DNA of 64,000 nt, taken from Eledone cirrhosa (Eukaryota). A model generated the notes under the pieces. It was given only the letters and a program-made list of their open reading frames with translations, did not search any database and was not told the DNA's origin. Each line of letters begins with the position of its first letter. Positions within the stretch are counted from its first letter, which is position 1. The DNA lies in assembly GCA_964016885.1 (NCBI GenBank), contig OZ024746.1:71300001-71364000 (forward strand), in the 5' to 3' direction. Position numbers and translations under genes: made by a program. Below are positions 3,762-62,564 of this stretch, in pieces.

Positions 3762-4555
3762 ATTAACCCATTTTGTTACCATATTTCTAATGACAGACAC
3801 TGCCTATGATTTTATAATAATTTTGGAAATAATCAAATATTTGGAGGACTTTAGTATAACTAAGTTTTTCAATATTAAGCTGATACTTCAAACATAAAAA
3901 AATATTCTTAAATAAAATTATGGAGGGTTTATTAACTCTTAAACCCATTCACTACCACATTTTCTAATGACAGCTACAACCTATACATTTAAAATAATTT
4001 TGAAAAGAATTTGGAGGGATTTGGTAATATAACTAAATTTCTCATTATTGGCAGTATCGGTAGAGCGTCAGACACCATGCTTTGTTTTCAGCATAGAGTT
4101 ATGGCCCTTTACGCTCTGAGTTCAAATCCCGCCGAGATTAACTTTACCTTTCCTCCTTACGGGGTCGATAAAATAAACCACCAGTAATGCACTGGGGGAA
4201 TTACTGGCCTTGTGCCAAAAGTAGAAACAATTATTAAGCTGGTGTTTAGAACATAAAAATGTTCTTTAAAAAACGGGTCTTAGATAAATATTAACACTTT
4301 AACCCTTTCGTTACCATATTTCTAATGGAAGACACTACCTTTGGTTTTCAAATAATTTTGAAAATAATCAAGAATTTGTAGGGATTTAGTAATATAACAA
4401 ACTTTTCCCTTAAGTTTGTGTTTGGAATATAACAAATATTCTTATGTAAAATTATGATGGAAGTTGTTTTTATATAAATATTAATATTTTATAACAAACA
4501 GCTTAGTATCTTTGAACCAGAAGCAGTTTTGGCTGGTTGGTCTCAAAAGGGTTGA
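3762..4555 (+). mobile_element. piggyBac-type MITE (4303-4551) preceded by two degenerate tandem copies of its left part (~3762, ~3939)
   Basis: TTAA|CCCTTTCGTTACCA ... TGGTCTCAAAAGGG|TTGA gives imperfect TIRs and a TTAA-like TSD. The related start 'aaccca..ttaccatatttctaatga' recurs at 3764 and 3942. A similar short element lies at ~62811-62867. Confidence 0.55.
4049..4235 (+). mobile_element. tRNA-derived SINE family A (Nin/Deu-like central domain)
   Basis: A-box-like tggcagtatcggtag, B-box gagttcaaatccc, core 'ctttcctccttacggggtcgataaaataaa' and tail gtagaaacaattatt. Inserted inside a MITE-derived repeat. Confidence 0.8.
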
Positions 4556-26848: not shown

Positions 26849-26941
26849 TATATATATATATATATATATATATACGTTATTCCGGGTTGAATCGGAGGTA
26901 ACCACAGTAAGTAAGGTACTCAATACATTGCAGAGTATAAA

Positions 26942-27122
26942 AGTTTTAATATAGATGAGATTCTACAGGACTAGAACTGTTTCATTCTTTAGAAATCATC
27001 AGGAATCTGGGTATCAAAAAATAATACCATATAAATACCATATTTATTTTTTGATACCCAGATTCCTGATGATTTCTAAAGAATGAAACAGTTCTAGTCC
27101 TGTAGAATCTCATCTATATTAA

Positions 27123-27126
<4 letters not shown>
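26942..27126. mobile_element. Foldback element (~82-bp arms) carrying a complete type I hammerhead on each strand, abutting (TA)n
   Basis: Plus strand: agattc-CTGATGA(27066-72)-tttctaaagaat-GAAA(27085-88)-cag ttctagtc ctg-TA-gaatct. Helix I is 6 bp, helix III is cag/ctg, cleavage site GUA. Mirror copy at ~26958-27008. Confidence 0.85.
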
Positions 27127-30859: not shown

Positions 30860-30879
30860 CACATATATATATATATATG

Positions 30880-31337
30880 TAAAAGTTCTATTTAAATTGT
30901 TGGGATACAACAAGCAAATATTTTTATAACTGATATAAAGCACTCAACAAATAATTGGAGTAAAAATACGATATTAACAAATGGAAACTATATTTATAAA
31001 ACCATATTTATTTCATTATACATATTTCAAGGACACCATGTTAAATTATGGTGTGCTTTCATCAGATAAAATATAATATAGAGCAGTTTTATAAATAAAT
31101 ATTGACATACCTTTAAAGAATGCAACCATTACTGTTGGAAGCTCCAACAGTAATGGTTGAGCTTCCAACAGTAATGGTTGCATTCTTTAAGGGTATGTCA
31201 ATATTTATTTATAAAACTGTTCTATATTATATTTTATCTGATGAAAGCACACCATAATTTAACTTGGTGTCCTTGAAATATGTATAATGAAATAAATATG
31301 GTTTTATAAATATAGTTTCCATTTGTTAATATCGTAT

Positions 31338-31338
<1 letters not shown>
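30880..31338. mobile_element. HHR foldback family C copy 1 (hairpin 30965-31338 plus unpaired tail 30880-30964)
   Basis: ~180-bp arms. tattttat-CTGATGA(31238-44)-helix II aagcacacca/tggtgtcctt-GAAA(31275-78)-TATGTA-TA-atgaaata. Flanked by TA-rich microsatellite. Confidence 0.85.
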
Positions 31339-32067: not shown

Positions 32068-32192
32068 AGTACAGCATATTCGAAGTTCGAGCAGCAGCCA
32101 AGCCAACGAATGCCTGTTACTTATATTTAAGTAATAGCCGTACTAAGAGTGGGAAATGAAATTTCGTTTCATTTTTTTCCGTTTATATATAT

Positions 32193-32640
32193 ATATACGA
32201 TATTAAACAAATGTAAACTATATTTATAAAACCATATTTATTTCATTATACATATTTCAGGGATACCATATTAAAAATATGGCATGCCTTCGTCAGATAA
32301 AATACAATATATAAACAGTTTTATAAATAATTTTGACGTACCATAATATAAGCGACCATTAAATTAGGAGGCTGCCTCCTAATTTAATGGTCGCTTATAT
32401 TATGGTACGTCAAAATTATTTATAAAACTGTTTATATATATTGTATTTTATCTGACGAAGGCATGCCATATTTTTAATATGGTATCCCTGAAATATGTAT
32501 AATGAAATAAATATGGTTTTATAAATAAAGTTTCCATTTGTTTAATATCGTATATCTACTCCAAAAACTTGTCGACTGCTTTATATCAGTTATAAAATAT
32601 TTACTTGTTGTAACCCAACAATTTTAAATAAAACTTTTGC
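32193..32640. mobile_element. HHR foldback family C copy 2 (hairpin centred at 32373; tail 32556-32640), opposite orientation to copy 1
   Basis: tattttat-CTGACGA(32452-58)-aggcatgccata/tatggtatccct-GAAA(32490-93)-TATGTA-TA-atgaaata. Confidence 0.85.
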
Positions 32641-32853
32641 ATATATATATATATATATGTATATAGTCAAAGATTCATACACCAAAGAAGGTCCAGTTTA
32701 AAAGTGCCTCTTCCAAAATACAGCTGTGGCTATAACTGAACCCCCAAACCAGTGGTCACATATACATGTCAGGTGTGTGAAACTTCGTTTATACTAAATA
32801 AACTCTTGTAACGGATTTACCACTATTTACCGTGATCTTTCATCTACGGATTT

Positions 32854-40184: not shown

Positions 40185-41119
40185 CATTATATGCGTTATA
40201 TATACATTATACACTAACAGACACATACACATATACTTGTATAACAATGTATAAACCTAGATGTGTTGATTTATGCGGAGCAGTCTGTTTGTTGTGCGAT
40301 GTGTTGTTATCTTGTTATTAATTTGATGATTGAAAGGTCTTGGATTTGAAGGATCGGTAGAGCGCCGGCAAATAAATAGCTTGCGGTATTTATTTCGTCC
40401 CTTTTTCGATGTATAATTTTGTGTAGATTTTATAGTATAATAAAAATATTCAATCTCTTACAGAAGGTGGTAGCTCTTCCCTGAAAACTAGGGAAATCTA
40501 ATATAAATAAATATAAATATATGCATGTGTGTTTGTGTGTGTATGTGTGTATGTGTGTATGTATGTATGTGTGTGTTCGTGTCTTATTTCAATAACGGAC
40601 GTACCGTTCTCCATAAATAGAGAGGCATGCTTTAAGAGAAGTTAAGTGGTGTCTCACGCCCAGTGGTCTAACAGCACACAGGTCAATAAGTTTTCGTGCA
40701 ATATAACTGGATGGGGTGAAGCTTGGGATTGTGGAATTGGCAGCCTTGGAAGAAATCCAGACTAGGTGCAACTAAGACCGTTAACCATAAACCTTCACTG
40801 CATGTGAGTTTCTCTGTATAAGCAAATGCTAAAGGATTCAACCCCGAAAGGAAACTGAGTCAGGTGAAAACTCGTAACCCTACTCATCGTAAAGAGACCA
40901 TAAAGACACAATGAATGGTTCAATATGTCGGAGGCCCCCAACCCTCAAACAAGCAGGTTGGTTATATTTATTTGAACCATGTCAGACATAAGCCTGTACA
41001 CTATCCTAGACAACAAACTGTACCGGTCAAGGATGAGCAAGATCACGCATGTCCTTTCAACTGTACCCCCATGCTGGAGCATAACCAGATACGCAATGGA
41101 GTCGTAGTCGTTTCAGATA

Positions 41120-41822
41120 ATAATTGTTTCTACTTTTGGCACAAGGCCAGCAATTACCCAGTGCATTACTGGTACTTTATTTTATCGACCCCGTAAGGAT
41201 GAAAGACAAAGTTAACCTCGGCGGGATTTGACTTTGCCTTTCATCATTACGGGGTCGATAAAATAAAGTACCAGTAATACACTGGGTAATTGCTGGCCTT
41301 GTGCCTAAAGTAGAAACAATTATTATCTGGGTGGATTGGCAGTATTGGTAGAGGGTAGGATGTCGCGCTTTCCAGAATAGTTATGTCCCTTTACGGCCTG
41401 AGTTCAAATCCCGCCCAGATGATAATTGTTTCTACTTTAGGCACAAGGCCAGCAATTACCCAGTACATTACTGGTACTTTATTTTATCGACCCCCGTAAG
41501 GATGAAAGGCAAAGTTAACCTCGACGGGATTTGAACTCAGAATGGCAAGGGCCGTAACTCTATGCGTCAAAGCATCGTGTCCGACCCTCTGCCGATACTG
41601 CCAATTCACCATGGTTATTAATATTATATAGATTATTAATTGTTTCTACTTTTGGCACAAGGTCAGCAATTACCCAGTGCATTACTGGTACTTTATTTTA
41701 TCGACCTCGTAAGGATGAAAGGCAAAGTCAACCTCGGCGGGATTTGAACTCGGATCGTAAAGGGACGTAACTATGCGGGAAAGCATGGCGCCCGACCCTC
41801 TACCGATACTGCCAATCCACCG
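41120..41822. mobile_element. Cluster of SINE family A copies in mixed orientation, including a head-less inverted fusion at 41120-41325
   Basis: Minus-strand core 41120-41230 joins a plus-strand core 41228-41325. Plus head 41329-41418; full minus copies 41420-41612 and 41636-41822. Confidence 0.85.
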
Positions 41823-42068
41823 CCATATATAGATTATTAATATTATATAGAAACAAAGTAATTTCACGGCTGTAGTTTTATAACGTCAGTTTTCTACATA
41901 CTAGGGATTGGTGTGGGTTGGTAGTTGCTTTGACGGGTGATGGGGGATACTGTTGAAAGGACATGCTTGATCTAGCTCATCCTTGACCGGTACAGTTTGG
42001 TGTCTAGGATCGTGTGAACAGGTATATGGCTTATTTCGGACATGGTTCAGAGTTGGATTCGATTTTCT

Positions 42069-42141
<73 letters not shown>

Positions 42142-42145
<4 letters not shown>

Positions 42146-42170
42146 CGAACAACCGAAATCTTGTTCATGA

Positions 42171-42210
<40 letters not shown>

Positions 42211-42239
42211 TCATGAGCAAGATTTCGGTTGTTCGAACA
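42142..42239. repeat. Short foldback (~35-bp arms) with a (TA)n centre
   Basis: tgttcgaacaaccgaaatcttgttcatgaaataa (ta)n ttatttcatgagcaagatttcggttgttcgaaca. Confidence 0.8.
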
Positions 42240-42344
42240 ACTGAAATACGCACACAGACACACATACTTACACATACATACACATACATATACACACACA
42301 CACACGCACATACACACAGGTACATATATACAAACACACATGTT

Positions 42345-42409
<65 letters not shown>

Positions 42410-42857
42410 GTAGAGAGGGAGGGAGAGAGAGAGAGAAAGAGAGGGAGGGAGAGAGAGAGAGGGAGATAGAGAGAGATAGAGAGATAGAGATAGAGAGAGA
42501 TAGAGATAGAGAGAGATAGAGAGAGAAAGAGAGAGATACCGTGGTGTTAAGTAAGTAAAAGATATAATATAATATTCCCATCCTTCTCGACAGTTTTATA
42601 ACGACACCAACACCATAGATATTATTTAAATGTATATAAACTTCCAGAGAGCAATATTTAAAAAAAAACCCTGTTCTTGCTGTGTTCGTATATTTGTATA
42701 AACATCATTATAAACTCTTGTTTATGTATGCATGCATATTTATACACATATATGAATGCATATACAAACTACCACTCTTCCACTATATATATATATAAAT
42801 TCAGATACACCCACACACACACATACATATATATATAAATTAAATTATGTGTAAATA

Positions 42858-42894
<37 letters not shown>

Positions 42895-43048
42895 TTATAT
42901 TTATATATACTTATAAATATATATATATATTGAGAGGGAGAGGGAGAGAGTGTGGTAAGATAGCAGGTGGACCATAACGCACCAGGGTACTCAATACTTA
43001 GGGGTGTAGAGTGTGTAATAGGAAAAGAGTCGGATCTATCTATGTATG

Positions 43049-43080
<32 letters not shown>

Positions 43081-43082
<2 letters not shown>

Positions 43083-43821
43083 CAATATGTTGAAAAGGTA
43101 ACACACCAGAGAGAGATATACAGTGTGTTATCAATAAAACAGGGAAAAAACCACCAGTGTATGGAATCTATAACCTATGAAAGGCAGACTATAGACACGA
43201 TAATTAAAAATATAAATTAAAGCGTAAATAAATACCTTTATAACTATATATCACACGTACAAATCCAAAGATCCAAATCCAAAGATATGTTTCACCAATA
43301 ATTTGTTGAAAGAAATGGGTTAGCCTCGGTTCATCAGCGTGTGTAAGGCTATACATTTCAGACAACACTAAGAGAATTTTAAAATTGACTGCACAGCTAC
43401 ACGGGGGAGAGAGAAGTCACAGCGTGTTTAAGGGCAGTGAACCAGTGGCTTCTGAGGGACGAACTGCTAGAAAGGGCAGCCCAAAGCCACTCAGAGAAGT
43501 GTGCTCAACCAAACAGAGATAGGAAAGACTGTTATTAGGAGCGAAATATCACGATAAATTAACGGAGGCATAGGCCCTCGCTATTCCCTGTAAATAATGT
43601 GCTCAAAAGAGAAGACATCCTGAGCTCTTTAAAATACAATATGTTGAAAAGGTAACACACCAGAGAGAGATATACAGTGCGTTTTATTGATAACGCACTG
43701 TATATCTCTCTCTGGTGTGTTACCTTTTCAACATATTGTATTTTAAAGAGCTCAGGATTTCTTCTCCTTTGAGCACACTATTTACAGGGAATAACGAGGG
43801 CCTATGCCTCCGTTAATTTAT

Positions 43822-43829
<8 letters not shown>
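43081..43829. mobile_element. TA-embedded element with terminal redundancy (period 554 bp) and a ~138-bp foldback
   Basis: tacaatatgttgaaaaggtaacacaccagagagagatatacagtg at 43081 and 43635. Hairpin 43546-43829. Minus strand has CTGATGA-accg...tggt-GAAA-cata-TC at ~43284-43337 without clear helix I. Confidence 0.7.
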
Positions 43830-43908
<79 letters not shown>

Positions 43909-44026
43909 TATATATATAATATATAATATATAATATATATAATATATAATATATATATATTAATATATATATAATATATATATATATTAATATATATATA
44001 TATGTATATATATAATATATATATAT

Positions 44027-47000
44027 ATTTGAATAAATGCTCTGAAATAGCGATATATATGTGAATATAGACATAGAATATTCGAAAATATTCTGTATGT
44101 TTATAATAAACATTTTGAAGACCTAATCGCTATAGAATAGAATACGTCACGTATTACAATTAGATTCTCGATAAAAGCAAGGGAAGTAATCTACGCGTTT
44201 CATTCTCGTTAGAAATCATCAGGACTACATATCCAGTGCTTTTATCGAGAATGACACAGCTAGAGACTTATAGAATACTTAGCTGTGTACAGGAACTGGT
44301 TTGAAAGAGCGGTTGCCGGTCCGGCAGAAATTAGAAATTTGAATAAATGCTCTGAAATAGCGATATATATGTGAATATAGACATAGAATATTCGAAAATA
44401 TTCTGTATGTTTATAATAAACATTTTGAAGACCTAATCGCTATAGAATAGAATACGTCACGTATTACAATTAGATTCTCGATAAAAGCAAGGGAAGTAAT
44501 CTACGCGTTTCATTCTCGTTAGAAATCATCAGGACTACATATCCAGTGCTTTTATCGAGAATGACACAGCTAGAGACTTATAGAATACTTAGCTGTGTAC
44601 AGGAACTGGTTTGAAAGAGCGGTTGCCGGTCCGGCAGAAATTAGAAATTTGAATAAATGCTCTGAAATAGCGATATATATGTGAATATAGACATAGAATA
44701 TTCGAAAATATTCTGTATGTTTATAATAAACATTTTGAAGACCTAATCGCTATAGAATAGAATACGTCACGTATTACAATTAGATTCTCGATAAAAGCAA
44801 GGGAAGTAATCTACGCGTTTCATTCTCGTTAGAAATCATCAGGACTACATATCCAGTGCTTTTATCGAGAATGACACAGCTAGAGACTTATAGAATACTT
44901 AGCTGTGTACAGGAACTGGTTTGAAAGAGCGGTTGCCGGTCCGGCAGAAATTAGAAATTTGAATAAATGCTCTGAAATAGCGATATATATGTGAATATAG
45001 ACATAGAATATTCGAAAATATTCTGTATGTTTATAATAAACATTTTGAAGACCTAATCGCTATAGAATAGAATACGTCACGTATTACAATTAGATTCTCG
45101 ATAAAAGCAAGGGAAGTAATCTACGCGTTTCATTCTCGTTAGAAATCATCAGGACTACATATCCAGTGCTTTTATCGAGAATGACACAGCTAGAGACTTA
45201 TAGAATACTTAGCTGTGTACAGGAACTGGTTTGAAAGAGCGGTTGCCGGTCCGGCAGAAATTAGAAATTTGAATAAATGCTCTGAAATAGCGATATATAT
45301 GTGAATATAGACATAGAATATTCGAAAATATTCTGTATGTTTATAATTTCTAATTTCTGCCGGACCGGCAACCGCTCTTTCAAACCAGTTCCTGTACACA
45401 GCTAAGTATTCTATAAGTCTCTAGCTGTGTCATTCTCGATAAAAGCACTGGATATGTAGTCCTGATGATTTCTAACGAGAATGAAACGCGTAGATTACTT
45501 CCCTTGCTTTTATCGAGAATCTAATTGTAATACGTGACGTATTCTATTCTATAGCGATTAGGTCTTCAAAATGTTTATTATAAACATACAGAATATTTTC
45601 GAATATTCTATGTCTATATTCACATATATATCGCTATTTCAGAGCATTTATTCAAATTTCTAATTTCTGCCGGACCGGCAACCGCTCTTTCAAACCAGTT
45701 CCTGTACACAGCTAAGTATTCTATAAGTCTCTAGCTGTGTCATTCTCGATAAAAGCACTGGATATGTAGTCCTGATGATTTCTAACGAGAATGAAACGCG
45801 TAGATTACTTCCCTTGCTTTTATCGAGAATCTAATTGTAATACGTGACGTATTCTATTCTATAGCGATTAGGTCTTCAAAATGTTTATTATAAACATACA
45901 GAATATTTTCGAATATTCTATGTCTATATTCACATATATATCGCTATTTCAGAGCATTTATTCAAATTTCTAATTTCTGCCGGACCGGCAACCGCTCTTT
46001 CAAACCAGTTCCTGTACACAGCTAAGTATTCTATAAGTCTCTAGCTGTGTCATTCTCGATAAAAGCACTGGATATGTAGTCCTGATGATTTCTAACGAGA
46101 ATGAAACGCGTAGATTACTTCCCTTGCTTTTATCGAGAATCTAATTGTAATACGTGACGTATTCTATTCTATAGCGATTAGGTCTTCAAAATGTTTATTA
46201 TAAACATACAGAATATTTTCGAATATTCTATGTCTATATTCACATATATATCGCTATTTCAGAGCATTTATTCAAATTTCTAATTTCTGCCGGACCGGCA
46301 ACCGCTCTTTCAAACCAGTTCCTGTACACAGCTAAGTATTCTATAAGTCTCTAGCTGTGTCATTCTCGATAAAAGCACTGGATATGTAGTCCTGATGATT
46401 TCTAACGAGAATGAAACGCGTAGATTACTTCCCTTGCTTTTATCGAGAATCTAATTGTAATACGTGACGTATTCTATTCTATAGCGATTAGGTCTTCAAA
46501 ATGTTTATTATAAACATACAGAATATTTTCGAATATTCTATGTCTATATTCACATATATATCGCTATTTCAGAGCATTTATTCAAATTTCTAATTTCTGC
46601 CGGACCGGCAACCGCTCTTTCAAACCAGTTCCTGTACACAGCTAAGTATTCTATAAGTCTCTAGCTGTGTCATTCTCGATAAAAGCACTGGATATGTAGT
46701 CCTGATGATTTCTAACGAGAATGAAACGCGTAGATTACTTCCCTTGCTTTTATCGAGAATCTAATTGTAATACGTGACGTATTCTATTCTATAGCGATTA
46801 GGTCTTCAAAATGTTTATTATAAACATACAGAATATTTTCGAATATTCTATGTCTATATTCACATATATATCGCTATTTCAGAGCATTTATTCAAATTTC
46901 TAATTTCTGCCGGACCGGCAACCGCTCTTTCAAACCAGTTCCTGTACACAGCTAAGTATTCTATAAGTCTCTAGCTGTGTCATTCTCGATAAAAGCACTG

Positions 47001-48411
47001 GATATGTAGTCCTGATGATTTCTAACGAGAATGAAACGCGTAGATTACTTCCCTTGCTTTTATCGAGAATCTAATTGTAATACGTGACGTATTCTATTCT
47101 ATAGCGATTAGGTCTTCAAAATGTTTATTATAAACATACAGAATATTTTCGAATATTCTATGTCTATATTCACATATATATCGCTATTTCAGAGCATTTA
47201 TTCAAATTTCTAATTTCTGCCGGACCGGCAACCGCTCTTTCAAACCAGTTCCTGTACACAGCTAAGTATTCTATAAGTCTCTAGCTGTGTCATTCTCGAT
47301 AAAAGCACTGGATATGTAGTCCTGATGATTTCTAACGAGAATGAAACGCGTAGATTACTTCCCTTGCTTTTATCGAGAATCTAATTGTAATACGTGACGT
47401 ATTCTATTCTATAGCGATTAGGTCTTCAAAATGTTTATTATAAACATACAGAATATTTTCGAATATTCTATGTCTATATTCACATATATATCGCTATTTC
47501 AGAGCATTTATTCAAATTTCTAATTTCTGCCGGACCGGCAACCGCTCTTTCAAACCAGTTCCTGTACACAGCTAAGTATTCTATAAGTCTCTAGCTGTGT
47601 CATTCTCGATAAAAGCACTGGATATGTAGTCCTGATGATTTCTAACGAGAATGAAACGCGTAGATTACTTCCCTTGCTTTTATCGAGAATCTAATTGTAA
47701 TACGTGACGTATTCTATTCTATAGCGATTAGGTCTTCAAAATGTTTATTATAAACATACAGAATATTTTCGAATATTCTATGTCTATATTCACATATATA
47801 TCGCTATTTCAGAGCATTTATTCAAATTTCTAATTTCTGCCGGACCGGCAACCGCTCTTTCAAACCAGTTCCTGTACACAGCTAAGTATTCTATAAGTCT
47901 CTAGCTGTGTCATTCTCGATAAAAGCACTGGATATGTAGTCCTGATGATTTCTAACGAGAATGAAACGCGTAGATTACTTCCCTTGCTTTTATCGAGAAT
48001 CTAATTGTAATACGTGACGTATTCTATTCTATAGCGATTAGGTCTTCAAAATGTTTATTATAAACATACAGAATATTTTCGAATATTCTATGTCTATATT
48101 CACATATATATCGCTATTTCAGAGCATTTATTCAAATTTCTAATTTCTGCCGGACCGGCAACCGCTCTTTCAAACCAGTTCCTGTACACAGCTAAGTATT
48201 CTATAAGTCTCTAGCTGTGTCATTCTCGATAAAAGCACTGGATATGTAGTCCTGATGATTTCTAACGAGAATGAAACGCGTAGATTACTTCCCTTGCTTT
48301 TATCGAGAATCTAATTGTAATACGTGACGTATTCTATTCTATAGCGATTAGGTCTTCAAAATGTTTATTATAAACATACAGAATATTTTCGAATATTCTA
48401 TGTCTATATTC

Positions 48412-48412
<1 letters not shown>
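44027..48412. mobile_element. Retrozyme-like tandem array of 310-bp hammerhead units (~4.25 inverted + ~9.9 direct) within (TA)n
   Basis: Period 310 (gaataaatgc at 44031, 44341, 44651, 44961, 45271), with an orientation switch at ~45346. CTGATGA on + at 45462+310n (n=0-9) and on - at 44216, 44526, 44836 and 45146. Confidence 0.9.
45432..45520 (+). ncRNA. Representative type I minimal hammerhead ribozyme of the 310-bp unit
   Basis: attctcgataaaagca/tgcttttatcgagaat 16-bp distal helix I, internal loop, gtagtc/gattac proximal helix I, CTGATGA (45462-68), helix II ttct-aacg-agaa, GAAA (45483-86), palindromic CGCG helix III, cleavage after GUA (45492). Confidence 0.88.
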
Positions 48413-48480
<68 letters not shown>

Positions 48481-48491
48481 ATATATATATA

Positions 48492-48569
<78 letters not shown>

Positions 48570-49279
48570 CATAACTTTCTGCATTTACTGCGGTTATGAG
48601 AAGCGGTTCTTATTCGGGTACAACTTCTGATTTAGCCTAAGAAAATATCTATATGCGTGTGTAATTTATCCAAGCATATATTTATTTTTTTATTTTCAAT
48701 TGAGTTCTTAAACACGTTGGATTGATAATGTTTTCAAAAAAAATAATTAACCCGCGTGTATATTATTTTTTTCCTCTTTTCGTAGATCGTGGGTTGTCTC
48801 CCCTTCCCGCTTCGTGTCGCTATGATACTTCCTCAGTCAAAAACTGCTGGAATTTCAAATTTGGCGGTCATTCGAGGTGGGAGAGAGCAACTTTACGGAC
48901 ATGATTTTTGACAGCGGTAAGAAATTGTTTTCTTATATCAATGTTTAATGGGCTTCCACTGATGATTTATAAGTACCCACCTAAATATATTCTTACATGA
49001 ATATATATTAGGCTTCTACATAAACTGGAAACATTCTCCCAAACTTGTAGAAAACTTATAATGAAACAATTGTTTGGAAAGAGAGATATACTTTAACTTT
49101 AATTATATCTCATAAAATAATACAACTGGTTTTTCCACATTATACATATTGTTAGCACCCCAAACACTTAAATTGGGTTTATATTTTAATATAACCTAAT
49201 GTTTGTTGAGTGAGATGGTTACCAGTCAGAGTTTAGCTTTAAACTATCTCTGTTATTTTATTTAATTATATATATATAT

Positions 49280-49619
49280 ATTAGAAAATGAGGTTTTTTT
49301 TCGAAATGAAAAAAAATGAGATGTCCTACACGAGTGAAAGTATAAGGAAGAAAGATGAAATCCAAAATGCAAATGGAGTCCTTTTTTTTAAAAAAATATT
49401 TATTTGGTTCCTTTACTGGTTTCGCAGTTCTTGTGCTTTTCAAAAGTAGAGTTGAGATGGAGGGTTTGTGGTTTTTCTCGCATCTGATGTGAGAAAAACC
49501 ACAAACCCTCCATCTCAATTCTACTTTTGAAAAGCAGAAGAACTGCGAAACCGGTAAAAGAACCAAATAAATATTCTTAAAAAGACTCCAGTTGCATTTT
49601 CGATTTCATCTTTTTTCCT

Positions 49620-49624
<5 letters not shown>
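49280..49624. mobile_element. Foldback family E copy 1 (hairpin 49340-49624, centre 49485) with a degenerate hammerhead
   Basis: TTGAAAA(49527-33)-gcag aagaa ctgc-GAAA(49547-50)-CCGG-TA. ~140-bp imperfect arms. Confidence 0.72.
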
Positions 49625-49710
<86 letters not shown>

Positions 49711-49716
49711 TTCTAT

Positions 49717-49753
<37 letters not shown>

Positions 49754-50585
49754 TGAAAAGTGTAATTTTCTACACAAAACGAAGGTTATAGAGAAAATTG
49801 AGGTTGATAATGGCACATGGAATATATGAGACAGAATACTTTTTTGTGAAAAAACATATAATTTTATAAGGTAAGGAAATAATAAAGGGTATAAAAATTG
49901 ACCGGTTTCGATGGGTCTGCAAAAGCCATCTTTTCAAAATATATAAATATGTACATACATATACATACATATATACATACATATAACTATATTTATATGT
50001 ATATATTTACGTAAAAAAAAACAAACTAAGACATAAATTAGAAATGTAAAATTTTGATGGATTTGTTTGTCTTACTTTAGTCTCGTTTTCACTCCTGAAT
50101 TTCTAACTTACATTGAACTATGCGCCTTTTTTTTCTATAACAATCCTCACATAAACTGTATTGCTTTGTTTTGCAGCATGTCTGAAACATGAAAATTACT
50201 GACATGCTGAAATGATTCAAGTTTTCTTTTTTGAAAAAGGTTCTTAACGCCGAAATATCGTGAAATATAAGATAAAAGTGTAATGTGCCATTTGCTATGT
50301 TTGCCTTATTTTACTCCAGTTTTAACTCTTGTATTTCTAACTTGCATTGTATTGGCTTATACAAACAATCGTAACCATTTTCGTACAATGCTTCATATAA
50401 ACTATACTGCTTCTTATTCAATCAAGTTTTCTTTATTCTATTTATAGCTTGCATTATTCTGGCTTTCCCAAAGCAATCCGAACCACATATCTCCATATCT
50501 CACTATGTTCCGTATAATTATACGACTTTGTTCAAAATTTATATTCTTTCTTTTATCAATAATTTATTGTGATAAATAAACAATT

Positions 50586-51144
<559 letters not shown>

Positions 51145-56265: not shown

Positions 56266-56370
56266 TATATATATATATATATATAAGCACAAAATGGAGA
56301 CACCATTCCTAGGCCGAGGTATTCCGTACTTCTCTATACTGTTTCAGAAAGGAGGGATAAACATGCCACT

Positions 56371-57812
56371 CTAGCAGAATGACCCGGCGTTGCTCGGGCT
56401 TCTAAACATAGATTGCCATGTTTATTCCTCCTTTCTGAAACAGTACAGAGAAGTACGGAATACCTCGGCCTGGGCATGGTGCCTACATTTTGTGCTTAGG
56501 CAGATAATTTTCCATTAAGATTTTTCAAAAGCATGTAATTGCGTTCCCTTTCTTTTTTTTTTTTTTTATGCTGTTGGTGTAATAGCAGCCGTTGGTCGTA
56601 CTACTAACACCGTCTCGTCCTTCTTCAGCCAATCGTGTATATCCCCTTCTGCCTCATCTACCTAACAATGATTGTAGCACCTCCTTGTACACAATGTTCC
56701 TTGGGTATATGCAAAGAGATTTGTCTTGATTCCCACTCTTGAGCAGCCAACGTATAGTGACGAACTTATTCCTAGTTGGTAATTGGTAAAGAAAATAAAA
56801 AATTTTCCGCTTAACGTCAGCGTACGTGATGTTATCATAGGTGTGGGGATATTTTGGCGGGGGTTTTCTAAAAAGATCAACTATTTCTATCTACCGGGGT
56901 TAGTGGAAATGTCTCAAGATATGTTATCAAAAAATTAGTAAATGACACTTACCGATTGAAAAATAAGCCGCTCGTCGGAATGGTAGTCTCAACTGTAATT
57001 GGTAACCTGGGCTGGCTTTCCTCGCTTATGTACCAAGATAGATAGAAATTACCGCTTAACGCCAGCGTGTGTGATTTTTAACATAGGTGTGGGGATATTT
57101 TTTGGCGGGGGCTTTCTAAAAAGATCCACTATTTCTATCTATGTACGTAATGGGGCATATGGCTTGGTACTAACACCAATAATAATGTGTGCAACGGGGG
57201 TAAGTGATTATGTCTCAGGAAGTATTGCAAAAAATATTAAAGCATCTGGGGTATGTGGGAATGTCTCAGGATTGTTAGCCAAAAAATTAGTAAATGACAC
57301 TTACTGATTGAAAAATAAGCTGACCGTCGGTAAGGTATTCTCAAGTGTAATTGTTAAACTGGGCTGGCTTGCCTCGCTTATATTATATATTAAAATAACA
57401 GATTAAAGTTTAAGCAAAGAATCGCTGCTTTCACCCTTAACGGGATCTTCTGAAGCTAAAAAAATTCAGTCTGTGAACGCAGAAGTAAATATTTCGAAAA
57501 ACGTTGCAACCGAAGGAAAACAGGAAAACGATACTTTGGTTCTTGAAAAATGTTTGTCATAATGTCGTAATGCAGACAGCCAGACATACAGACAGATATT
57601 ATAAGGGCGCGACAGAGATCGATAACCGGCGCCTAACACCCCTTTAACAATAGAAAATTGAAAAGTAAAAAGTGCAGTTAATATCTTTAGACCGCAAGGA
57701 ATATATAAATGCAAGTTTGAAGTCAATCGGAGTAGAAATGTGGATTTGTATAGACTTTGCAAAAATTAGGACACACACACACACACACACACACATAGAG
57801 AGACAATTTCAG
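56371..57812 (-). mobile_element. Non-autonomous Helitron with a Pif1-like helicase C-terminal remnant
   Basis: Minus-strand 3' end cccgagcaacgccggg hairpin + CTAG (56398-56371). LYVGCSRVGIKTNLFAY (~56760-56705) resembles the RepHel motif GQLYVA.SRV. Internal duplication 56805-57029 / 57050-57381. Confidence 0.68.
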
Positions 57813-61133: not shown

Positions 61134-61158
61134 ATACAAAACACATGTATGTATGTAC

Positions 61159-61214
<56 letters not shown>

Positions 61215-61226
61215 ATATATATGTGC

Positions 61227-61351
<125 letters not shown>

Positions 61352-61360
61352 AATATATAT

Positions 61361-61418
<58 letters not shown>

Positions 61419-62564
61419 GTACATACATACATGTGTTTTGTTTCCTTTAATACCGATTAACTGCTCTATAATGATGTTTGCATACACAGCGCAATCATGT
61501 AATTATATGCACACACGTGGTTAGGGTGTGTAAGCATGGGTGTGTGTATATATGTCTCTGTGTGTGTTTATGTGTGTCGCAAGTATGAATGTGTATGTAT
61601 GGGTGTGTTTTGCTACCCTAATGAATCTCAATTATATATATGTATATATACATATTCACACATATATATCATATATATATATATTTACACACAAACATAT
61701 ATGAAACATTTTATACATGGTTAAAAATAATTATTCATGAGTAGTTTAATGTCTGTATATGTATATATTCAATTATATCAAATAATATATGTATTTTATA
61801 TACTTTCAGTTAAGATTAAACAAGGAAGTATATATATATATATATTACGAGCGCTTAACACTGTTTTCTATGTATTTGTATGTATCAACGCTCTCTCACT
61901 CTCTCTCTATATATATATCTCTCTCTATATATATATAACTCTCTCTCTCTCTCTTTCTTTCTCTCCCTCTCTCCCCCGCTTTTTCTCCCTCGCTCTCTCC
62001 CTCTCTCTCTCTTTCTCTTTCTCTCTCTCTTTGTAAATATATATTTATATTATATATATATATATGTGTGTGTGTGTGTGAGTGTGTGTGTGTCTGTGTG
62101 TCTGTGTGTGTGGGTGTGTGTATGTTTGTGTATGTGTTTGTGTGTTTGTGTCTTGAATATCGGTAAAACATGTAAACATGGGTGAGAAAGTAGAAAAGCC
62201 TGTGTTATTGAGCGAAGTCGTTTACGTTAGTTCTTTGTCACTGATGTTGCTGTCAGAAATGCTAGGAGTTCATGGAGTGGTCGATTGGAAAACTGTAACC
62301 AACAACGCTTTGGTTCAACAACTGTGATGAAGAAACAAATGAAATATGATAAATAAACTATGAGCAAGATTCATAAAAGTATCATGATATAAATTGGAAG
62401 CCATTTTGAATTCTGGGGATATTGAATGTTTCTGATAAAATGGACATTAACAAAAGTACCATCAAATAAATTAGAAGCCATTTTGTTGTGCTTATATAGA
62501 AGAATTATGGGAATATCATGGACAGAACACAATTATGGATTTTAAGAAAAGTATAATGAAATGT

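Follow-up and report, generated by a model that had tools for sequence, protein, structure and literature searches.

Non-coding tandem repeats with a hammerhead ribozyme, the non-LTR retrozymes, have been described from metazoans with units of 170-400 nt, low GC content, one type I hammerhead per unit and many dispersed arrays in genomes that also hold Penelope-like elements (PLEs), and the 310-nt family studied here is alike in all these respects (PMC7229834; bioRxiv 10.64898/2026.07.22.740005). Reverse transcription of retrozyme circles and mobilisation by PLEs are so far hypotheses (PMC7229834, Cervera and de la Pena 2020; bioRxiv 10.64898/2026.07.22.740005, Li et al. 2026); the latter work links retrozymes to the pLTRs of PLEs, offers local amplification and leaves the mechanisms "to be elucidated". 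As these sources describe them, retrozymes form tandem arrays only, whereas in the 310-nt family a pair of inverted arms, paired ends at fixed sites, insertion into (TA)n and edited repeats are the rule.

Copies of PLEs carry an inverted 5'-truncated copy and a one-ended tail of 30-40 bp and use (TA)n targets (PMC8557442, Craig et al. 2021), and dimeric hammerheads occur in them (PMC4209133). Self-priming on an antisense template has been proposed, with the origin of the inverted copy and the polarity of the template left open (PMC3846280, Arkhipova et al. 2013). In vitro, a PLE protein has been shown to cleave both strands and extend them, its reverse transcriptase (RT) starting at two internal sites that bound the tail and are without homology to the cut DNA; this work ends before integration (PMC11167929, Frangieh et al. 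2024). Twin and dual priming have been defined for L1 (PMC2837659, Meyer et al. 2010). The locus described below is probably a non-autonomous non-LTR retrozyme that was inserted not long ago, mobilised from both target ends by a PLE RT/GIY-YIG protein, a reading to which a probability of about 0.75 is given.

Anatomy of the locus and of its 310-nt unit

The window is the whole stretch of 64,000 nt of Eledone cirrhosa DNA that was analysed. With phase 0 of the unit set at window position 45347, the features of the locus are:

43826..44026, left (TA)n target tract with AA, TT and G interruptions
44027..45347, minus strand, arm A, 4.26 exact units, outer end at the family's end A, ribozyme-sense strand pointing outward (left)
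44027..44061, minus strand, PLE-type "tail", phases 276-0, on the outer end of arm A and lacking on that of arm B
45345..45347, junction of the inversion, where the arms overlap by AAT (3-nt microhomology, which is in excess family-wide)
45345..48412, plus strand, arm B, 9.90 exact units, outer end at the family's end B, ribozyme-sense strand pointing outward (right)
45347..45656, plus strand, one 310-nt unit of the putative retrozyme, in arm B
45456..45498, plus strand, putative type I hammerhead motif of the first arm-B copy, one per unit, predicted cut after 45492
48413..48566, right (TA)n target tract

Arm A is an exact reverse complement of the unit over 1321 nt, from phase 309/0 at its outer end to phase 230 at its inner end. 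Arm B is exact over 3068 nt, from phase 308-0 at its inner end to phase 275 at its outer end, where "...CTATATTCA", the internal TA run of the unit, is followed by TA. Every repeat in both arms carries 130G and 307A, which differ from the family majority. The reverse complement of the left block (..ATTCAAA) continues into the right block (TTTCTAATT..) with 2-3 ambiguous bases. The two-block layout and the inversion in register had thus been described accurately in the sequence-only reading. Its count of about 14 copies agrees with the 14.2 found, and the right end that it had placed at the unit's own TA run is the family's end B. Immediately left of the TA tract, in the region 43080-43829, a hairpin with a third partial arm copy at 43080-43140 is possibly a partial-tandem PLE remnant that shares this tract with the retrozyme.

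The hammerhead motif lies on the outward-pointing strand in both arms and consists of stem I GUAGUC/GAUUAC, the core CUGAUGA, stem II, GAAA, a palindromic CGCG helix III and UA. Among the insertions that cover the motif at least twice (n=88), the core was intact in 87 and stem I paired in all 88, and the only core position that varied was the free N of CUGANGA. The fold z-score was only -1.0, and a Rfam scan of window positions 42000-50000 gave no hammerhead match at the gathering score, so the assignment rests on inspection and variation. The unit has 106 G+C of 310 in the family majority, i.e., below the 45% GC of retrozymes, and lies within their size range, and its arrays are dispersed in many copies as in non-LTR retrozymes. 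By the features assessed (size, composition, tandem layout and hammerhead), the window element is a retrozyme, as judged from its sequence. The unit was also found in sequencing runs X1-X20 (18 organism codes, 17 studies, no RNA run among those listed) at 0.64-1.00 of words, and in the contigs of runs X1, X2 and X10 it formed, each time with 1-3 differences, a self-joining contig of 340 nt, which demonstrates tandem or circular presence alone. The records from the 20 runs would fit contamination, diet, relatives and transfer equally well.

Ends, targets and junctions of the insertions

In the 3.0-Gb genome, 15,995 exact matches were counted for a 33-mer taken from the unit and 997 for the end-A junction. 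Dividing the 33-mer matches by the median of 7.4 units per insertion gives an estimate of about 2000 insertions in the family. The sample comprised 146 distinct insertions, the window included, and was drawn from 12 loci among the best DNA matches, 15 stretches from the first list of 33-mer matches that were unselected for ends, 80 stretches from the 100 end-A matches listed (997 in total) and 36 end-B matches without a nearby exact end A (1584 raw matches, partly double counted); the loci chosen by pattern were all on contig C1. Two arms were present in 127 insertions and a single arm in 16, and three were cut by the fetch limit or a gap. Five indel-rich loci on small scaffolds (L014, L018, L024, L047 and L048) were excluded from the variant counts, and L031, which is in four pieces, from the register test and from the arm-haplotype, variant, junction and position-matching analyses. 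L028 was unanchored in the junction analysis, and L134b is a duplicate of the start of L052. A stretch of 62 nt with 77% identity to unit phases 204-264 (L170, 3305-3365) could be a more ancient relative of this family.

All 115 complete two-armed insertions, which include loci picked by end A and loci picked by end B, had one end A and one end B, and neither A/A nor B/B pairs occurred. End A lies at phase 309/0, with a minority at 2-7, and end B at phase 275-284; no outer end in the sampled insertions fell outside these sites. On the RNA, end A extends about 25-42 nt past end B, in agreement with the one-ended tail of PLEs, and the 127 two-armed insertions among the 146 correspond to their inverted 5'-truncated copy. 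The microsatellite or AT-rich target of PLEs is likewise seen, 123 of 130 insertions being flanked left and right by TA runs. The family thus resembles EN+ PLEs in its tandem plus inverted structure, one-ended tail, microsatellite target, two nearby RT starts and extension of both strands (PMC8557442; PMC3846280; PMC11167929). It differs from PLEs in having no ORF and in arms of up to 20 turns of one unit. Moreover, the starts at sites A and B coincide with TA/AT microhomology to the target, in contrast to the starts reported in vitro (PMC11167929).

In all 10 informative cases the interruptions of the left flank and those of the right flank lay on one and the same strand, and the TA tract therefore existed before the insertion. 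A single insertion event into (TA)n, as the sequence-only reading had assumed, is supported, as is its priming by both target ends. Matches like target-site duplications (TSDs) were found in 9 of 127 insertions vs 0.3% in the control; TSDs are unreadable in TA tracts, as they were at the window locus, and a shared interrupted tract explains the matches equally well. In PLEs the target-site duplication is optional, with 8-10 bp in A. vaga.

Inner ends behaved differently from the fixed outer ends. Among 93 resolved inner junctions, 59 had no inserted bases and 34 had apparent inserts, some of which were artefacts of a nearby mismatch. An overlap of at least 2 nt was present in 36 of the 59 insert-free junctions vs 18% in simulations. 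Clustering at the hammerhead cut site, the expectation for linear monomers, was not seen in the inner ends (9/186 vs 6.0 expected). The predicted ligation point had no indels in 826 crossings, in which the only insertions were +C/+T, found in five loci at phase 148. L166 near 2488 and the junctions of L102 and L041 show short stutters of the unit where the cDNA ends, and these resemble what reiterative copying or template slippage might leave.

The sequence-only reading had taken the contiguity of the two arms as the signature of L1-style twin priming, in which the second primer anneals just upstream of the stop of the first cDNA and the arms divide one template between them. The window itself is in register within 2-3 nt, and the geometry, with both RNA 3' ends outward, and the junction microhomology also agree with twin priming (PMC2837659). 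In the other family junctions, however, register was at chance level: 3 of 125 lay within +-3 nt (2.8 expected, P=0.54) and 5 of 125 within +-10 nt (8.5 expected), and the reverse assignment gave 1-2 of 125 within +-3 nt (2.8 expected). Since the left end of the window locus is end A, a terminus that is fixed at 997 loci, the question of register reduces to whether the inner start of arm B is at phase 0. Since about 7 of the 310 positions would pass as in register, the prior for this is about 2% per locus, and the register of the window is a coincidence, a random inner end falling on the fixed site A. All outer ends run into TA repeats instead of showing the 3' poly(A) priming of L1, no TSD of L1 type was seen in the insertions, and the position-matched variants described below point to overlapping instead of adjacent copying. 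L1-style twin priming is consequently refuted for the loci sampled and is given very little probability. What the family has in common with L1 twin and dual priming is RT primed by both target ends and inverted arms joined by microhomology; the missing poly(A) priming and arm contiguity, a fixed second priming site and overlapping copies set it apart (PMC2837659). PLEs are the closer model; two-ended priming holds and L1-style contiguity fails. Random ends together with out-of-register inversions had been named beforehand as evidence against the sequence-only reading: the inversions are indeed out of register, while the outer ends are fixed and not random. Its expectation of non-integer copy numbers was borne out, the fractional parts falling 21/21/26/22/24 across five bins.

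A foldback, whether from a single target-primed reverse transcription (TPRT) with a self-priming cDNA that is copied back as far as the TA run, or from a palindromic read or assembly artefact, is extremely improbable. Self-priming has been proposed for PLE palindromes (PMC3846280), the arms were read from the assembly, and inner ends were mirror-symmetric within +-3 nt slightly too often (8/125 vs 2.8 expected, P=0.008, in one of 16 tests and with BLAST-defined ends), which may mean that a few junctions are foldbacks. A copy cannot exceed its template, yet arm B was longer than arm A in 54 of 114 insertions, in 36 of them with a difference of more than one unit, as it is also in the window, and foldback is therefore not the general rule, as the sequence-only reading had maintained for its simple form. 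Most junctions are, moreover, asymmetric, the two outer ends differ systematically, the flanks differ between left and right, and the plan is common to 127 insertions.

A probable single RNA template for both arms

Non-majority variants were fixed in both arms in 166 cases and in one arm in a single case (119 insertions). With 33 haplotypes among 88 loci, the arms were identical within a locus in 70 of 75 vs 10.7% of cross-locus pairs; the arms of L060 and L093 were discordant. The family works like twin priming in that one RNA is primed by the two target ends, with microhomology at the inner junctions. Dual priming from two RNAs is disfavoured by the agreement of the arms in haplotype. Polishing of the assembly could inflate the homogeneity of the repeats, but the repeats are resolved in it, since 113 minority variants that the arms do not share were seen.

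In 3 of 111 complete insertions (L085, L068 and L152), minority variants were position-matched (8 calls), i.e., found in both arms at equal distance from the outer ends. In L085 both arms begin with two outer repeats of one haplotype, which are followed by another haplotype. Owing to these variants, both arms are taken to copy one stretch in parallel from neighbouring starts, 25-40 nt from each other, with some templates being multi-unit. The three loci, a minority of events, suggest a linear or multi-unit template rather than a monomer circle. One could extend this to the whole family and assume two-ended PLE priming on a template that would as a rule be a linear multimer, made by read-through of a homogeneous source array, in line with unprocessed RNA as the dominant substrate in vitro (PMC11167929). 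Such a template is unlikely as the rule: position-matched variants were confined to three loci as against the 113 unshared variants, and the private variants that are fixed in all repeats of an array (28 calls in 139 insertions) need a bottleneck of a single unit.

The frequency of these private variants fits expectation because a circle would inherit the changes of its one source repeat: single-repeat changes amount to 0.057%, or 0.18 per unit (0.057% x 310), and private array-fixed variants are about as frequent. The low rate of single-repeat changes also bears on the idea that short PLE-type insertions were later expanded by local unequal crossover and gene conversion (satellite model, bioRxiv 10.64898/2026.07.22.740005). 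This model predicts homogeneous arrays equally well, and it is in keeping with the weakly correlated arm lengths (rho 0.28) and with a higher-order repeat in L052 (1307-6801), where two variants recur seven repeats apart through a multi-unit circle, later duplication or assembly. Nevertheless, it is decidedly improbable, as the arms exceed one unit in 77 and 76 of 90 loci although the copies are young, the 113 unshared variants indicate weak conversion, and the strand-specific A>G skew points to RNA.

This skew was found among the locus-fixed substitutions (48 distinct), which on the ribozyme strand included 23 A>G vs 4 T>C. Without L049 the numbers were 13 and 4 (P=0.009), the direction being assumed from the majority base. 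The single-repeat changes, among which errors of RT, DNA and sequencing are counted, had 11 A>G vs 21 T>C of 160 and differed from the fixed variants (Fisher P=0.007). In L049 (G000:C2:273395000-273400500), all repeats of the two arms share ten private A>G changes, three of which lie in the GAAA core; its hammerhead core would be dead, and its junction holds a 28-nt TA-rich filler. These changes are read as probable A-to-I editing of one sense-strand monomer, which would then have been copied about five times from two primers. The repeat landscape may resemble that of octopods, a group known for heavy A-to-I editing. Ten identical edits per repeat are unexpected from independent editing along a multimer. 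We infer from the sequence data that the template was probably sense RNA and mostly a single, circular unit; the circular or multimeric template of the sequence-only reading is hence supported.

The following course of events would account for the insertions under two-ended PLE priming. Arrays would be transcribed, cut by the hammerhead into 310-nt monomers and circularised, as in known retrozymes. The PLE endonuclease would cut both strands of a (TA)n tract, in agreement with the TA on both sides, and both DNA 3' ends would prime RT on one ribozyme-sense RNA. Priming site A would be ..CCAAU at phase 309/0, sometimes 2-7, and priming site B the CAUAUAUAU run at phase 275-284, with each insertion using one of either, as the pattern of outer ends indicates. 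Both RTs would circle the template in the upstream direction, the turns being random in number (median 3.4 per arm), and this would need strand displacement. The two cDNA 3' ends would then be joined by short microhomology or filler bases and the gaps filled. In the product both arms would point outward, with the "tail" as the difference between their outer ends and no relation between their inner ends. A more specific version, in which a PLE protein, dimeric in all likelihood, routinely loads one circular ribozyme RNA, two rolling-circle RTs run at once with their cDNAs following one another round this circle and A-to-I edits of single circles become germline arrays, is tentative and is given slightly less than an even chance; one RT would then belong to each strand of the (TA)n break and to each edge of the tail.

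Candidate drivers and significance

Frames that join RT to a C-terminal GIY-YIG domain are present in the genome, where a first look gave 10,596 GIY-YIG candidates. Three long open RT plus GIY-YIG frames with a Neptune-type zinc-finger motif were noted:

L167, 2709-5522, minus strand, 938 aa
L168, 788-3319
L169, 375-3662

These frames have a CX4CXXC motif ahead of the nuclease, a motif tied to the Neptune and Nematis clades (PMC8557442). In the part of the comparison covered, with three GIY-YIG loci of the 150 listed, belonging to two PLE families (L167/L168 and L169), no unit sequence was found beyond TA runs.

The window contains further palindromes. At 26875-27126 lies a short palindromic insertion in TA, both arms of which contain a related type I hammerhead (CTGATGATTTCTAAAGAATGAAAC, its helix III being longer) and one of which has an extra 67 nt. 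It represents a separate family, with at least 40 near-identical matches scored, and shares with the 310-nt unit a TCTATATT a few bases before the short end. Other palindromes adjoin TA or CA tracts:

30878-31338
32190-32641
43546-43829
49281-49624 (related: 50716-51025)
56284-56498
61136-61441

Three of them have 59-87 extra nt on one arm and two have CTGA.GA...GAAA motifs. By their sequences, the plan of an inverted copy plus tail seems to recur in several families of this genome that derive from PLEs. An abundant SINE-like repeat is present at 41114-41817 in several copies and as a foldback, and it is also found at 4047, 6191, 11972, 16454, 22814, 36334 and 60453.

The class of the element and its anatomy are each already known; what appears to be new is their combination in a multi-turn two-armed array, the strict A+B rule and the edited repeats. 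Two-armed retrozyme arrays or edited repeats were not found in the literature searched, subscription journals and bioRxiv supplements lying outside the search. The strict pairing of one A with one B and the probable sense template set the family apart from PLEs, for which antisense self-priming was proposed in 2013 (PMC3846280).

Because thousands of young insertions carry internal markers (haplotypes and edits), the questions raised for retrozymes and PLEs become testable by counting, and the one-A-one-B rule is a concrete prediction for PLE structures or reconstitution. If the proposed mechanism is true, the arrays would preserve in the genome the outcome of about 2000 single-molecule reactions. 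They would then provide in vivo evidence for retrozyme circles as RT templates, for a sense-strand template, and for the origin of the tail and the inverted copy of PLEs.
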